DNA of 64,000 nt from an uncultured Verrucomicrobiae bacterium (GCA_963812605.1 CAWEWF010000002.1:96001-160000), one strand, 5' to 3'; counted from the first letter of the stretch, positions 16,142-63,133 are shown. The notes: generated by a model from the sequence alone, not told the origin. A program made the numbers and translations.

Positions 16142-16169
16142 AAAGCGGCGACAAGTCGCCGCACTCCAA
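16142..16169 (-). repeat. GGAG-type REP palindrome right after the xerC stop
   Basis: Minus strand ttGGAGt-GCGGCGAC-tt-GTCGCCGC-ttt: tetranucleotide plus 8-bp stem. Confidence 0.7.
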
Positions 16170-16171
16170 AA

Positions 16172-17065
16172 CTAGGCCCGCGGATGCGCCTTCTCGTAGA
16201 CCTTCTTCAAGCGCTCGGGCGTGATGTGCGTGTAGATTTGCGTGGTGGAAAGATTGGCGTGGCCCAGAAGTTCCTGCACGCTGCGTAAATCGGCGCCGGC
16301 ATCGAGCATGTGCGTCGCGAAACTGTGACGGAGCTTGTGCGGTGTCAGCGATGGGTCGAGCCCGGCGGCAAGCAGATACTTCTTTAGCATGCGCTGCATA
16401 CTACGCGCCGTCATGCGTCCTCCGAATCGATTCACAAATAGCGGCCCGCGCGCGCTGCGCGCGCGCACTTCGAGGTATTTCTGCAGGGTTTCAATAGCCG
16501 GCCCGCCGAGCGCGGCCAATCGCTCCTTCTTGCCCTTGCCGCGAACGCGAACAACTTCGCCGAGCACATCCATGTCATCATCGTTGAGCTGGACGAGTTC
16601 GTGAATGCGCAGCCCCGCGCTGTACAACGTTTCCAGAATCGCCTTGTCACGCCACGCGGCCAGCTTGTTTTTCGCGTTTTCCTTCAATGGCGCTTCGAGC
16701 AGCGCCTCCACCTGCTGGATCGTCAGGAATTTCGGGAGTTTCCGCGCCTTTTTCGGAAGGGTCAGTCCCACCAAGGGATTCAGTTTCACGCGCTCGGTGC
16801 GCACAAGCCATTTGAAGAAACTGCGGAGCGCGGACATCTTGAGATGGATTGTGGCGCGATCGAATTGGCGCTCCGTGAGGTGGACCAGATAGCCGCGCAA
16901 ATGGAACGAATCAACCGGCACCCACGCGCACGATTGTTTGTACTTCCCCTCGAACCACGCGGCAAATGCCGCGATGTCGGCGGAGTAATTGCGGATGGTC
17001 AGCGGAGAAGCGTCGCGTTCGGCCCGCAGGTAATCGAGAAACCCGTCAACCAGCGAGTCCGTTAC
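16172..17065 (-). CDS. xerC: Tyrosine recombinase XerC (start uncertain)
   Basis: RDKAILETLYSAGLRIHEL, GKGKKER, PHKLRHSFATHMLDAGADLRSVQELLGHANLSTTQIYTH; downstream of topA. Confidence 0.9.
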   Translation of the reverse strand, partial: VTDSLVDGFLDYLRAERDASPLTIRNYSADIAAFAAWFEGKYKQSCAWVPVDSFHLRGYLVHLTERQFDRATIHLKMSALRSFFKWLVRTERVKLNPLVGLTLPKKARKLPKFLTIQQVEALLEAPLKENAKNKLAAWRDKAILETLYSAGLRIHELVQLNDDDMDVLGEVVRVRGKGKKERLAALGGPAIETLQKYLEVRARSARGPLFVNRFGGRMTARSMQRMLKKYLLAAGLDPSLTPHKLRHSFATHMLDAGADLRSVQELLGHANLSTTQIYTHITPERLKKVYEKAHPRA

Positions 17066-19491
17066 GCCTCTGCCGGCGCCAGTTTTTTGATGTTCTTGCA
17101 CTTCGGATAGGCCGAACAGCCGAGGAATTCGCCGAAACGACCGCGCCGCTTCGCCATGGGCGCGCCGCACTTCTCGCACTTCTCGTCGGTCAGCACGGGT
17201 TCTTCCTTGGGCGGGGGCGGGGGCGCTTTGTCTTTCAATTCATCGGGCAGCGTTTTGGCGTTGCGACATTTCGGATAGCCGGAACAAGCCAGGAATGGTC
17301 CGCGGCGGCTGTTGCGGATCAACATAGGCAAGCCGCACTTCTCACATTTCACATCGGTCGTCACCGGCGCGGGCTTCTCGATGACCGTGATCTTGCCCGC
17401 GGCATCGCGCGTGAACGATTTCGCGTTCTTGCATTCGGGATAGCCCGAGCAGGCGAGAAACTCGCCCCGTTTTCCCGCTTTGATGACCATCGGCGAACCG
17501 CATTTCTCGCACTTGATGCCTGTCTCTTCCTTTTCCACGATCTGAATGCTCCCATCTTCGCCGCGTTTGAAGTTCTTCGTGTTCTTGCATTTCGGGTACG
17601 CCGAACAGGCAATGAATTCGCCGTTCTTGCCAGGACGGGTCACCAACATTTCGCCGCAAAGCTCGCACTTGATGCCGATCGGAACGGGTTTCGGCCGCAC
17701 ATCTTCCATGTTCTCGCTCGCGGCCTTCAGGGTCGGCTCGAAATCCTTGTAGAATTCGCCGAGCATCTCTTGCCACCCGACCTTGCCCTCTTCAATCTCG
17801 TCGAGCAACTCCTCCATATGCGCCGTGAACTGCACATCGAGCAATTTCGTGAAATGCTTCACCAGCACGTCGGTCGTGATTTCGCCGAGTTGCGTCGGCG
17901 CCAGGCGGCCCTTCTCCTTGCTGACGTAATGCCGCTTCTGGACCGTGGCAATCGTCGGCGCATAGGTGCTCGGGCGTCCAATCCCGAGTTCTTCCAGCGC
18001 TTTGACCAATGTCGCCTCGCTGAAACGCGGCGGCGGCTCGGTAAAATGTTGCGCGGGGAGGAGCTTGACCAAATGCAGCCGCTCGCTCTCACTCAACGGC
18101 GGCAGCTTCTTGTTCTCTTCTTCCTCCGACGGTTTCTCCGGCTCCGCCTTCTTCTCAGCCTCTTCCTCGACTCCGTAAATCTTCAGCCAGCCCGCGAACA
18201 CCACCTCGGTCGCCGTCGCGCGAAACAGGAAGTACTTCGGATCGTGTCGCGCATCGATATCAATGCTGGTCACCTTCATCTCCGCGGGTGTCATCTGGCT
18301 GGCGACAAACCGGTCCCAAATCAATTTATAGAGGCGAAACTGGTCGTGATCGAGATACATCCGCAGGCTCTCCGGCGTCCGCCGCGCTGACGAGGGACGA
18401 ACCGCCTCGTGTGCGCCTTGGGCATCCTTCTTTGACTTGTAGAGGTTTGGCGTCGCCGGCGCATAGTCGGGGCCGATGGTTTCTCGGATAAACGCCAGCG
18501 CTTCGTCCTGCGCTTCTTTCGAAATGTTGAAGGAGTCGGTACGCATGTAGGTGATCAAACCGACCGCGCCCTCCGCGCCGATCTCCACGCCTTCGTACAG
18601 CTGCTGGGCCACAATCATCGTCTTGGTGGTACCCATGCCGAGGGCCTTCGACGCGGACTGTTGCAACGTGCTCGTCGTGAACGGCGGCGCCGCGCTGCGC
18701 TTCTTCGATTTGATGTCGATTTTGGCGACCTTGTACTCACACTGCTTTAGATCGGTCAGGATGGCGTCCGCCTGTTCCTTGCCATCAATGATCATGACAT
18801 CAGCCTTGGCCTCGCCGTTGGGCGACCGGACCTTCTTGTCACCCACCTGGATCAAGCGCGCCAGGAAATGGTCCTTCGGGTCCACGAGCTTCCGCAGTTC
18901 GGCCTCAACCGACCAATACTCCTGGGGCTTGAACGCGCGGATCTCCCGCTCGCGCTCCACCACCAGCCGCACCGCGACGGATTGTACGCGCCCGGCGCTC
19001 AAGCCGCGCGCAACACGCTTGTTCAAAAGAGGCGAAATCTTGTAACCCACGATGCGATCCAGGATGCGCCGCGCCTGCTGGGAATCGACCAGCTTCATGT
19101 CCACCTGACCGGGATGATCGAAGGCGGCGCGCACGGCGTTCTTGGTGATTTCGTTGAACTGGACGCGGAAGAACGTGGGGCCGTTCTTCTTGCTCTTCAG
19201 GATTTCCCACAAATGCCAGGCAATCGCCTCGCCTTCACGATCAGGGTCGGTCGCCAGGTAAACGTGCTCCGCACCCTCCGCGGTCTTCTGCAGTTCGGTG
19301 ACCAGCGCCTTCCGCTTGGCGGAAACCTGGTACGTGGGCTTGAAATCCTTCTCGATCTCGACGCCGAATTTGCGTTCGGGCAAATCGCGGACATGGCCCA
19401 TGGAGGCCTTCACGCTGAAGTCCGACCCCAAATACTTGTTGATCGTCTTCGCCTTCGCGGGTGATTCAACGATGACCAGTTTTTTTGCCAT
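17062..19491 (-). CDS. topA: DNA topoisomerase I with four C-terminal zinc ribbons
   Basis: MAKKLVIVESPAKAKTI, ATDPDREGEAI, SAGRVQS, ITYMRTDS, GIGRPSTYA; 4x CxxC..CSxYPxC. Confidence 0.97.
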   Translation of the reverse strand: MAKKLVIVESPAKAKTINKYLGSDFSVKASMGHVRDLPERKFGVEIEKDFKPTYQVSAKRKALVTELQKTAEGAEHVYLATDPDREGEAIAWHLWEILKSKKNGPTFFRVQFNEITKNAVRAAFDHPGQVDMKLVDSQQARRILDRIVGYKISPLLNKRVARGLSAGRVQSVAVRLVVEREREIRAFKPQEYWSVEAELRKLVDPKDHFLARLIQVGDKKVRSPNGEAKADVMIIDGKEQADAILTDLKQCEYKVAKIDIKSKKRSAAPPFTTSTLQQSASKALGMGTTKTMIVAQQLYEGVEIGAEGAVGLITYMRTDSFNISKEAQDEALAFIRETIGPDYAPATPNLYKSKKDAQGAHEAVRPSSARRTPESLRMYLDHDQFRLYKLIWDRFVASQMTPAEMKVTSIDIDARHDPKYFLFRATATEVVFAGWLKIYGVEEEAEKKAEPEKPSEEEENKKLPPLSESERLHLVKLLPAQHFTEPPPRFSEATLVKALEELGIGRPSTYAPTIATVQKRHYVSKEKGRLAPTQLGEITTDVLVKHFTKLLDVQFTAHMEELLDEIEEGKVGWQEMLGEFYKDFEPTLKAASENMEDVRPKPVPIGIKCELCGEMLVTRPGKNGEFIACSAYPKCKNTKNFKRGEDGSIQIVEKEETGIKCEKCGSPMVIKAGKRGEFLACSGYPECKNAKSFTRDAAGKITVIEKPAPVTTDVKCEKCGLPMLIRNSRRGPFLACSGYPKCRNAKTLPDELKDKAPPPPPKEEPVLTDEKCEKCGAPMAKRRGRFGEFLGCSAYPKCKNIKKLAPAEA

Positions 19492-62625: not shown

Positions 62626-63062
62626 CTCCGCGCGAGTTTCGGTGGCGATTCTTCCTGGGTCAGCAGCGCGATGCGCGTGATTTTGGCGGCGTGCAACTCC
62701 TTGAGCACTTCCATGACGGCGCCGTAATTGTTCACCTCATCGGCCTTGACGAGAATTGTGATGGGCGGATCGGACTGGGCCAATTTCGCCAGTTCACCGC
62801 GCAGTTGCGGCTGCGACAGGGCGATGTCGTTGAGGTAAATCTTCCCGCGCTTGTCCACGGAGAGCGTGCGCGTTTGCTCGCGCTTGATCTGGTCGGTGGT
62901 GCCCTTCGGCAAATTGATGTTCATGCCGTACTCGACCACGGGGAAGAAAATGATGACCGCAATGAAGAGTTGCATGAACAGGTCCACGAGGGGCATGACG
63001 TTGATCTCACCCAGCTCGGGCAGATGTCCGTACCGTTTTCCGCGATTCGAGGGGCGTCTCAT
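62622..63062 (-). CDS. TolR/ExbD
   Basis: EINVMPLVD, INLP, KAD....YG.VM. Confidence 0.9.
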   Translation of the reverse strand: MRRPSNRGKRYGHLPELGEINVMPLVDLFMQLFIAVIIFFPVVEYGMNINLPKGTTDQIKREQTRTLSVDKRGKIYLNDIALSQPQLRGELAKLAQSDPPITILVKADEVNNYGAVMEVLKELHAAKITRIALLTQEESPPKLARR

Positions 63063-63073
63063 AAATCATCACG

Positions 63074-63133
63074 TGTAGCCGCGAATCTCATTCGCGGATT
63101 TTTATCCCACCGCGAAAAGGTTTCGCGGCTACA
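63074..63133. repeat. REPIN-like doublet of inverted GTAG REPs between tolQ and tolR
   Basis: tGTAG-CCGCGAA-tctca-TTCGCGG (63074-63097); minus strand tGTAG-CCGCGAAA-cct-TTTCGCGG (63133-63110). Confidence 0.85.

Follow-up and report, generated by a model that had tools for sequence, protein, structure and literature searches.

The alaS locus and its inserted cassette

We analysed a window of 64,000 nucleotides (nt) from an uncultured Verrucomicrobiae bacterium (G000:C2:96001-160000; positions are counted from the first letter of the window), in which alaS, the gene of alanyl-tRNA synthetase (AlaRS), carries an in-frame insert. The insert codes for a domain resembling the REP-associated tyrosine transposases (RAYTs) and is bracketed by two repetitive extragenic palindromic (REP) sequences. 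The usual view of REP/RAYT systems places them outside genes and gives the transposase a gene of its own, present in single copy. The genome bin which holds the window, G000, comprises 4.17 Mb in 15 contigs and is 90% complete; the relatives compared with it are denoted G001, G006, G007, G009, G012 and so on. The closest AlaRS proteins with a named source come from Verrucomicrobiae, Chthoniobacterales, Terrimicrobiaceae and Spartobacteria, and the five listed DNA runs which contain parts of the window originate from soil metagenomes. The features of alaS are the following (aa, amino acids):

25095..28442, minus strand: alaS, the host gene, one open frame of 1115 aa with the Pfam families tRNA-synt_2c (in two stretches), tRNA_SAD and DHHA1
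26952..27569, minus strand: in-frame insert of about 202 codons, AlaRS residues ~292-497, delimited against the empty alleles of congeners
27562..27573, minus strand: partial REP-like fragment (GCCTGCG, then GGTGG) just outside the left REP, without hairpin, below 10 bits
27533..27557, minus strand: left REP with a GGTGG head, a 7-bp stem and a GTCCCT loop, read as GGASVPAC
27045..27497, minus strand: RAYT-like HUH/Y1 domain, residues ~316-466, with H372/H374 and Y445/N449
26987..26999, minus strand: partial REP-like fragment GGTGGCTCAAGTG, like the REP head in 11 of 13 positions, just inside the right REP, without hairpin, below 10 bits
26956..26980, plus strand: right REP, the exact reverse complement of the left REP, read on the gene strand as QAGTLAPP

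The catalytic domain of AlaRS is split by Pfam into two stretches around the insert, and the inserted part matches Y1_Tnp (PF01797) with an E-value of 9.4e-5 and 23.0 bits, which is exactly the Pfam cut-off. Between the same flanking motifs there are 699 nt in the alaS of G000 and 93 nt in an empty allele, giving an insert size of 606 nt. In the alignment the insertion site falls between residues ~278 and 280 of human AlaRS, in a short loop ahead of the helical tRNA-recognition part. The sequence GGTGGCGCAAGCGTCCCTGCTTGCG forms a perfect inverted repeat of 25 nt around the RAYT domain, with arms 552 nt apart and 100% complementary; each arm is also a hairpin by itself, with the head, stem and loop given above. 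When 67 genomic copies are combined into a weight matrix and the window is scanned from end to end, only these two REPs reach 10 bits, and nothing does so in the five shuffled versions.

From the left REP to the RRLPHW motif the reading frame contains no ATG, GTG or TTG, and it runs on to the right REP without a stop codon. The cassette has neither a start nor a stop of its own, and therefore the RAYT domain can only arise as a part of AlaRS; the free-standing gene, with its own start and stop, which marks RAYTs and REPtrons elsewhere is absent here. When the AlaRS flanks were used as tblastn queries, the genome, which is 90% complete, gave no second alaS. The original prediction had proposed a RAYT-like domain fused inside AlaRS, and the Y1_Tnp match, the HUH and Y-x3-N motifs and the RAYT-like predicted fold agree with this; the REP-RAYT-REP unit is likewise open in the frame of alaS from end to end. 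Its four REPs in alaS are reduced to two intact copies and two short fragments which form no hairpin.

Elsewhere in alaS, positions 26086-26115 hold an exact 15-nt tandem duplication read as TTASQTTASQ, within a 9-residue insert present only in G000 among 30 alaS loci. The duplicated unit includes CGCAAGC, and the same heptamer makes up one half of the stem in the flanking REPs.

Motifs, predicted fold and constraint of the RAYT domain

The metal-binding HUH motif (His-hydrophobic-His) of the domain is present as MPDHVHLL. In an alignment of 178 related domains, taken from long and short frames and either embedded or free, H372 and H374 are each kept in 177, Y445 and a W in all 178, and N449 in 174. 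Both HUH histidines are invariant in a second alignment (48/48 sequences), and H372, H374 and Y445 are invariant in all 38 AlaRS fusions at this loop, with N449 nearly invariant. Y445, which we take to be the catalytic tyrosine by analogy with TnpA of IS608, lies together with N449 in the helix 147-163 of the model of the insert.

This model, made with AlphaFold2 from the 48-sequence alignment, has a mean predicted local distance difference test (pLDDT) score of 82.5; most blocks of the core reach 93-98 (two have 82-83), and the three blocks nearest the N-terminus have 42-54. Its top match in Foldseek is 4ER8 (E 1.1e-8, template-modelling score by target 0.67), the E. coli REP-associated transposase in complex with a REP hairpin, and the next matches are the TnpA proteins of ISDra2, IS200 and IS608 (IS200/IS605 transposases). 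The insert is thus predicted to have a RAYT-like fold. Sequence comparison of the insert with solved structures gives only weak matches, to IS200/IS605 TnpA (E 0.28-0.9). Outside the RAYT core, the insert consists of linkers of 20-30 residues which are coded by REPs and are of low confidence or predicted to be disordered.

Among the three carriers of the cassette in the genus, the nonsynonymous divergence (dN) of the RAYT domain is 0.19-0.36 and that of the AlaRS flanks 0.03-0.08; depending on the pair and the flank, the domain has 2.4 to 12 times the dN of the flank. The synonymous divergence (dS) between carriers is saturated or above 1, and the sole computable dN/dS for the domain is 0.18. 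Between G000 and G001, the REPs are identical in 24/25 and 25/25 positions, while the coding DNA between the REPs is 69% identical. Because the REPs are near-identical while the synonymous sites are saturated, the hairpins are conserved at the DNA level.

No Hint (intein) domain is detected in Pfam searches of the whole protein or of the insert; a weak match of the insert to CobA_CobO_BtuR (17.0 bits) remains below the cut-off of 25.7. No group I or group II ribozyme or other RNA family is matched in Rfam at E <= 1 on either strand of 26500-28000. Contigs of four soil runs cover the window thinly and in patches, and no joint that skips the insert is found among them; the three joints listed lie elsewhere (27734-28315) and have short sides.

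The dispersed family of alaS-type REPs

The REP motif of alaS has 79 matches in the genome at up to six mismatches, compared with six for the reversed motif. If the head and the loop are used as an anchor and the stem is left free, 64 copies are found, 59 of them with all seven stem pairs; a control anchor finds two copies, neither of them paired. There are at least seven fully paired versions of the stem, including the following:

CACAGGC/GCCTGTG: 34 of 64 copies
CGCAGGC/GCCTGCG: 11 of 64 copies
CGCAAGC/GCTTGCG, the version beside the RAYT domain of alaS: 3 of 64 copies

Such covariation of the stem is what would be expected for a hairpin recognised as a structure. G000 contains seven matches to Y1_Tnp, and the one in alaS alone has REPs with the GTCCCT loop within 700 nt; four of the six others have a different hairpin family within that distance. 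Among these four is a second RAYT-like domain, fused to the C-terminus of a D-aminoacyl-tRNA deacylase (Dtd) through REP-coded linkers (contig C6, L014:721-1833, outside the window), which has its own hairpin family on both sides. The RAYT of alaS has no further copy of its type in G000. The hairpin family of the Dtd fusion is the following (ACAGGC-GGGAC-GCCTGT, 21 copies).

An open frame of at least 80 aa on each side spans 24 of 63 REP copies (38%); the corresponding fraction is 3-31% in eight other hairpin families and 55% (1108/2000) for random 25-mers. Apart from alaS there are 28 spanning frames, 20 of which (the longest frame per place) were put through Pfam; those left out are overlapping alternates and two short frames (C8:62251-62829 and C9:7683-8633). 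Real genes are confirmed in 16 of the 20, and the other four, three of them on contig C11, have no family. The confirmed genes code for PurL, a class-III aminotransferase, PriA, FtsY, GlgA, Dxr, an XdhC/MobA protein, a DUF255 protein, the CCA enzyme, Mfd, Ffh, PrmC, a NuoN-like subunit, HemB, pyrimidine-nucleoside phosphorylase and DnaJ. In 13 of them the REP falls inside a matched domain or between two such domains, in one it follows the last domain, and in two (PriA and DnaJ) it is upstream of the first and may be outside the true gene. The presence of same-family REPs in frame in many real genes of this genome, which accords with the original prediction, is confirmed by these Pfam results. 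The two copies in alaS are themselves intragenic REPs, being members of a dispersed palindrome family which lie wholly inside a real open reading frame (ORF) and are read in frame.

In the confirmed genes the REPs are read as QAGTPxPP (9), GRDACAT (4), GGxGVPAC (4) and others (3), and the two hairpins of alaS are read as the QAGTPxPP and GGxGVPAC types. The family is free of stop codons in all six phases. We considered this openness as a special adaptation of the REPs and rejected the idea, as 6575 of 20000 random genomic 25-mers are stop-free too. The phases most common in genes give peptides rich in Pro, Gly, Ala and Thr, of a composition that would suit loop insertions. On contig C11 (G000:C11:2703-17616), five REPs of the alaS family are located in three open frames of 877, 498 and 721 aa without a Pfam family.

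Occupancy of the loop among relatives

The comparison included 30 alaS loci, drawn from 41 genomes at the levels of genus, family, order and class. The full cassette is found in three of them (G000, G001 and G009), all of which have the inverted layout of REPs around the RAYT domain; in G009 the REPs have a GGTAG head and a different stem. Three loci (G013, G021 and G025) are REP-only, with short in-frame inserts of other hairpin or inverted-repeat sequence and no RAYT, and 24 are empty. The excess over the empty allele is always a multiple of three (606, 588, 597, 78, 87 and 63 nt). Variable occupancy of the loop among orthologues had been named by the original prediction as the test of its hypothesis, and the orthologues pass it.

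A quick tree of AlaRS was calculated with the insert columns removed (29 rows; G001, whose locus is cut, was dropped). The tree places two empty relatives, G006 and G012, as the sisters of G000 (support 98) and pairs G009 with its sister G007, which is empty too (support 99, with end branches of 0.044 and 0.035). On this tree the carriers do not appear as each other's closest relatives. Since the sisters of the carriers are empty, several gains or exact losses of the cassette have taken place inside a single genus.

The right flank of the insertion site reads DQIK(I/T)DIAF in four of the six occupied alleles, EQIKIDIAF in G000 and NQIAVDIAF in G013. Most of the empty alleles of the genus have EQGKVDIAF, and the empty G007, sister of the carrier G009, also has EQIKIDIAF. 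This pattern could be due to a co-transferred tract, a target preference or an ancestral state. A second loop of AlaRS (residues ~608-630) differs widely in length between congeners and contains inserts of 24-79 residues (loci L029, L035, L042-L045 and L047-L049), which do not appear to be coded by REPs; more distant AlaRS proteins hold a RAYT at this same second loop.

Related domains in other proteins and genomes

The inserted part matches 431 proteins (613-1952 aa) from other assemblies at E <= 0.001. Among the 119 of these that were listed (G000 excluded), 82 are AlaRS by a heuristic assignment and 37 are other proteins. Of the 82 listed AlaRS, 45 have the RAYT at this loop, 26 have it at a second loop ~110 residues downstream, eight have it at both sites, and in three the site is unclear. 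In an even sample of the phylum, 98 of 401 genomes contain a related domain at E <= 1e-8, and 37 long frames with such a RAYT-like domain from the phylum genomes were put through Pfam. Their hosts are distributed as follows:

Translation-related, 9: AlaRS 3, ValRS 2, LeuRS 1, Dtd 1, CCA-adding enzyme 2
DNA replication and repair, 10: PriA 4, RecG 2, XseA 3, MgsA 1
Restriction-modification and methylases, 10, non-essential: Eco57I/MmeI-type 7, HsdR 2, DUF1156 methylase 1
Other, 8: B12-radical-SAM 3; Mur ligase, mevalonate-diphosphate decarboxylase, HypF and FAD oxidoreductase 1 each; unknown 1

Fusions of RAYT/Y1-type domains inside housekeeping proteins, which the original prediction had suggested should be sought in related genomes, do occur (AlaRS, ValRS, LeuRS, PriA, RecG and others). 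Its emphasis on essential translation genes is not upheld by the 37 hosts, as only nine are translation-related, ten belong to replication and repair, ten to non-essential restriction-modification enzymes and methylases, and eight to other functions.

The closest relatives outside AlaRS are located within the BirA biotin ligase/repressor (546-597 aa, 55-61% identity; metagenome proteins P0121-P0126). Further hosts among shorter proteins are Ham1-type pyrophosphatases and PurH. In a FastTree phylogeny of 48 domains, most embedded RAYTs cluster by host gene across families (PriA, radical-SAM, XseA, CCA); the domains of HypF and of the Mur ligase nest within the groups of other hosts, and free forms are interspersed. 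The alaS domain belongs to a group of eight (support 97) whose members are all embedded, two of them in RecG and six at one or other of two AlaRS loops. We also considered a RAYT lineage confined to life inside genes; this was rejected because free-standing RAYTs are 55-60% identical to the alaS domain.

Other repeats and genes of the window

The genes in 16142-63133 are ordinary: xerC, topA, dprA, aroB, tilS, serS, alaS, recA, a LigT-like gene, cinA, an AsmA-like gene, an ABC-2 transporter set, a WD40 protein, leuS, a CLC channel, an M16 peptidase and a tol/pal-like cluster. A search for direct repeats in the window chiefly found coding repeats (topA zinc ribbons, WD40) and did not bring out the REPs; the repeat hairpins listed here are based on a hairpin census of the window:

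16145..16162, minus strand: hairpin directly after the stop codon of xerC, low-copy, 7 copies in the genome
50408..50443 and 50465..50507, plus strand: two dispersed repeat modules of other families upstream of leuS, 17 other matches
63075..63132, plus strand: GTAG-headed REP doublet (REPIN) of a different REP family, in the spacer of tolR-like and tolQ-like genes

All three intergenic elements are real but unremarkable, and they belong to families other than that of the alaS REPs. The doublet between tolR and tolQ, where an intergenic REP had been expected, folds with -22.4 kcal/mol (z -7.4) and has 25 other matches in the genome. The repeat element reported upstream of leuS is real and consists of two dispersed modules, the first of which contains the hairpin GGCCACG-N6-CGTGGCC at 50418-50437. 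The supposed REP at xerC is indeed a low-copy repeat hairpin (six other copies, 90-94% alike); as a REP it is weak, and with a T-rich run behind it, it may simply be a terminator. Two further elements could not be recovered: the REP remnant in tilS has no match at up to two mismatches to any family with at least four copies, the peptide RGAGVPG of TilS merely resembling the REP-coded GAGVPAC, and Tandem Repeats Finder (score >= 30) reports no heptamer array in leuS, where the best period-7 stretch matches in 15 of 21 positions (51460-51487).

Two synthetase genes of the window are interrupted. leuS (50564-53184) is read in several frames but is otherwise open, and the genome yielded no second leuS. 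Compared with G012, whose N-terminal part is 93% identical, it has five 1-nt deletions and one 1-nt insertion within 870 nt (51127, 51192, 51398, 51880, 51930 and 51996); the LeuRS frames of congeners are intact (814-927 aa, loci L104-L119). serS (23770-25052, minus strand) is read in three frames, with the coiled coil in 24663-25052, a middle piece within 24377-24724 and the catalytic domain in 23770-24666. As far as the searches went, each gene has only one copy in the genome, and both are well conserved apart from the breaks; local assembly error is therefore the likeliest cause. The single-base indels are probably such errors, leuS being more probably a badly polished stretch than a pseudogene. 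The breaks have no link to REPs. LeuRS also varies by insertion: short inserts after FAAR(D/E) are found in four genomes, the version of G009 and G007 (PSTSLGAGD) resembling the repeat module upstream of leuS, and a module of ~65 residues between LQLF and LAYE is present in five genomes (G000 and four of 16 congener loci).

Comparison with known systems

The cassette of alaS shares with the REPtrons (E. coli yafM, 4ER8; Pseudomonas REPIN-RAYT) the HUH and tyrosine domain, the RAYT-like fold, the inverted REPs on both sides, the single copy of its type per genome and the matching dispersed REP family with covarying stems. It differs in having no gene of its own, being an internal domain of an essential enzyme, in the head of the REP (GGTGG here and GGTAG in G009, compared with the usual GTAG) and in the location of ~38% of the alaS-type REP copies within long open frames. 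By fold, motifs, flanks and repeats it is a REPtron, but not a free-standing gene. RAYTs are described as free, single-copy, vertically inherited genes in those passages of PMC5581495 and 10.1101/2021.07.10.451892 that deal with them, and the same passages do not mention in-frame fusions with host proteins. A phylogenomic survey set unexpectedly long proteins aside as fusions or errors (PMC6006769). Our full-text literature search, with supplementary files outside its scope, returned no account of a RAYT read in frame within a host protein.

Intragenic REPs as such have precedents. The sections of Di Nocera et al. (2013, PMC3733652) on this subject describe GTAG/CGTC REPs wholly within ORFs, including tRNA synthetase and DNA repair genes, among others in the verrucomicrobium O. 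terrae, and in some cases at the same site in orthologues. Those are hairpins inside genes, whereas alaS adds the transposase itself, read in frame. The palindromic elements of Rickettsia, as cited there, are in frame in functional genes and translated as loop peptides. Like the REPs of alaS, they are palindromes translated in frame. To our knowledge they travel without an associated transposase domain, unlike the alaS cassette.

Inteins with homing endonucleases are similar in being selfish, enzyme-coding, in-frame passengers of conserved, essential and often nucleic-acid-handling proteins, and in their patchy distribution. The alaS insert, in contrast, has no Hint domain and apparently stays in the mature protein, and its enzyme would be a single-strand nuclease/ligase of the HUH type and not a homing nuclease of the LAGLIDADG or HNH type. 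With IS200/IS605 elements and IStrons the cassette shares a related Y1 HUH fold and subterminal hairpins as recognition sites. The hairpins are inverted in the alaS cassette, whereas those flanking IS608 are presumably in parallel orientation. IStrons live inside genes without killing them; the alaS cassette has no ribozyme, and harm is avoided by translation, not by splicing.

Interpretation and rival explanations

We favour the reading that alaS holds a complete REPtron, which probably persists as a largely selfish in-frame passenger translated as a domain of AlaRS. Having no start or stop of its own, the cassette would be translated as an internal AlaRS domain on REP-coded linkers, and the domain would lie in the short loop at the surface that joins the aminoacylation core to the helical tRNA-recognition part. 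The fusion would then combine a working AlaRS, which charges tRNA-Ala, with a putative enzyme that binds and cuts GGTGG/GTCCCT hairpins on single-stranded DNA, the activity ascribed to RAYTs. Only an exact in-frame removal would spare the essential gene, and with no other alaS found, an imprecise deletion would kill the cell; it is reasonable to infer that the element has here a deletion-resistant home, as was proposed originally. Gain and loss might proceed through hairpin-guided cutting and joining of single strands, as in IS200/IS605, or through recombination in the conserved flanks of alaS.

Several observations weigh against this reading. In the AlphaFold2 model of the full-length fusion the mean pLDDT is 64.9 and the core of AlaRS is low too; residues 330-470 mostly have 85-93, and 289-322 and 471-496 are below 50. 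The model thus has a confident inserted domain between two low-confidence linkers, and it gives no evidence that AlaRS tolerates the insert. The stem version which flanks the RAYT is rare (3/64 copies, compared with 34/64 for CACAGGC), and therefore an activity of the RAYT on the bulk of the REP family is only assumed. The patchy occupancy fits a few transfers or many exact losses alike. Free-standing RAYTs of 226-256 aa are as similar to the alaS domain as stated above (55-60% identity). The grouping by host fits long vertical residence, possibly domestication, as well as it fits selfish persistence. Finally, the indel clusters in the two neighbouring synthetase genes indicate that local sequence errors are possible.

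The main rival is domestication, in which the RAYT would be a host-serving part of AlaRS, or a resident REP-handling enzyme housed in alaS, kept by selection and rarely lost. The invariant catalytic residues and the purifying selection on the domain agree with this, as do its single copy in the genome, the occupation of the same loop in 45 of the 82 listed AlaRS fusions and the fact that RAYT domains from different families mostly cluster according to their host gene, a sign of long vertical residence; RAYTs in general are argued to be domesticated, single-copy and vertically inherited in the relevant part of PMC5581495. However, 24 of the 30 alaS loci of relatives lack the insert, including the sisters of both carriers on the tree, the inserted domain is found in many unrelated hosts, among them non-essential restriction-modification enzymes, and its dN is 2.4 to 12 times that of the AlaRS flanks; we therefore consider domestication unlikely. 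Still less probable is an inert relic, an old in-frame insertion tolerated as loop decoration and no longer acting on DNA. The REPs beside the domain are a minority version of their family, reduced REP-only inserts are found at the same site in three relatives, and the Dtd-fused RAYT of G000 has F where the alaS domain has Y (F occurs at this position, which is not that of the invariant tyrosine, in 110 of 178 domains). A relic is difficult to reconcile with HUH and Y-x3-N motifs kept in 174-178 of 178 domains, with REPs identical in 24-25 of 25 positions between two species whose dS is saturated, and with the confidently folded core of the model.

The insert could also be removed before the protein functions, by splicing at the level of RNA or protein or by excision from the DNA in most cells. 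In RNA, the perfect 25-nt inverted repeat could pair both ends; the IS200/IS605 relatives excise exactly, and IStrons, which combine an IS200/IS605-type element with a group I intron, provide a precedent. Yet the insert is open and in frame in all fusions observed (the 431 proteins, and all the long frames from the phylum genomes), which nothing would enforce if it were removed, and neither the Rfam search of 26500-28000 (E <= 1) nor the Pfam search for a Hint domain gave a match, so that we regard removal as very improbable. An artefact of assembly, or a chimera of the metagenome bin, is the least credible explanation of all: the bin consists of 15 contigs, is 90% complete and has indel clusters in two nearby genes, but the frame is kept over 3.3 kb, the same architecture is found in hundreds of independent assemblies and in two congeners, and small error-free contigs from soil runs, though possibly from the source sample, span both REPs.

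Beyond this locus, the reading of alaS as a REPtron carried in frame leads to a wider and more tentative one. RAYT cassettes may, as one possibility, have a distinct lifestyle as transposable elements, in which the transposase, without start or stop and between hairpins compatible with coding, is a translated and unspliced domain of conserved proteins across several phyla (tRNA synthetases, primosome and repair helicases, restriction-modification enzymes and many more). Such cassettes would move between hosts and between free and embedded states, and would be protected from loss because nothing but exact excision keeps the host gene whole. The term "intein without splicing" would describe such an element, with an HUH enzyme as its basis; it would also seed in-frame REP peptides in protein loops throughout the genome.

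In alaS a transposase-like enzyme would be expressed solely within an essential enzyme, and its hairpins dot the loops of housekeeping proteins. The phenomenon is overlooked where surveys discard RAYT matches as "too long", or where the gene is annotated as a plain alanine--tRNA ligase. If the fusion is active, it would represent a new strategy of persistence in gene-dense genomes, namely hiding in frame in genes which the cell cannot lose. Conserved proteins would also have a natural supply of loop and domain insertions, and AlaRS, ValRS, PriA, RecG and others would offer a natural set of permissive insertion sites.

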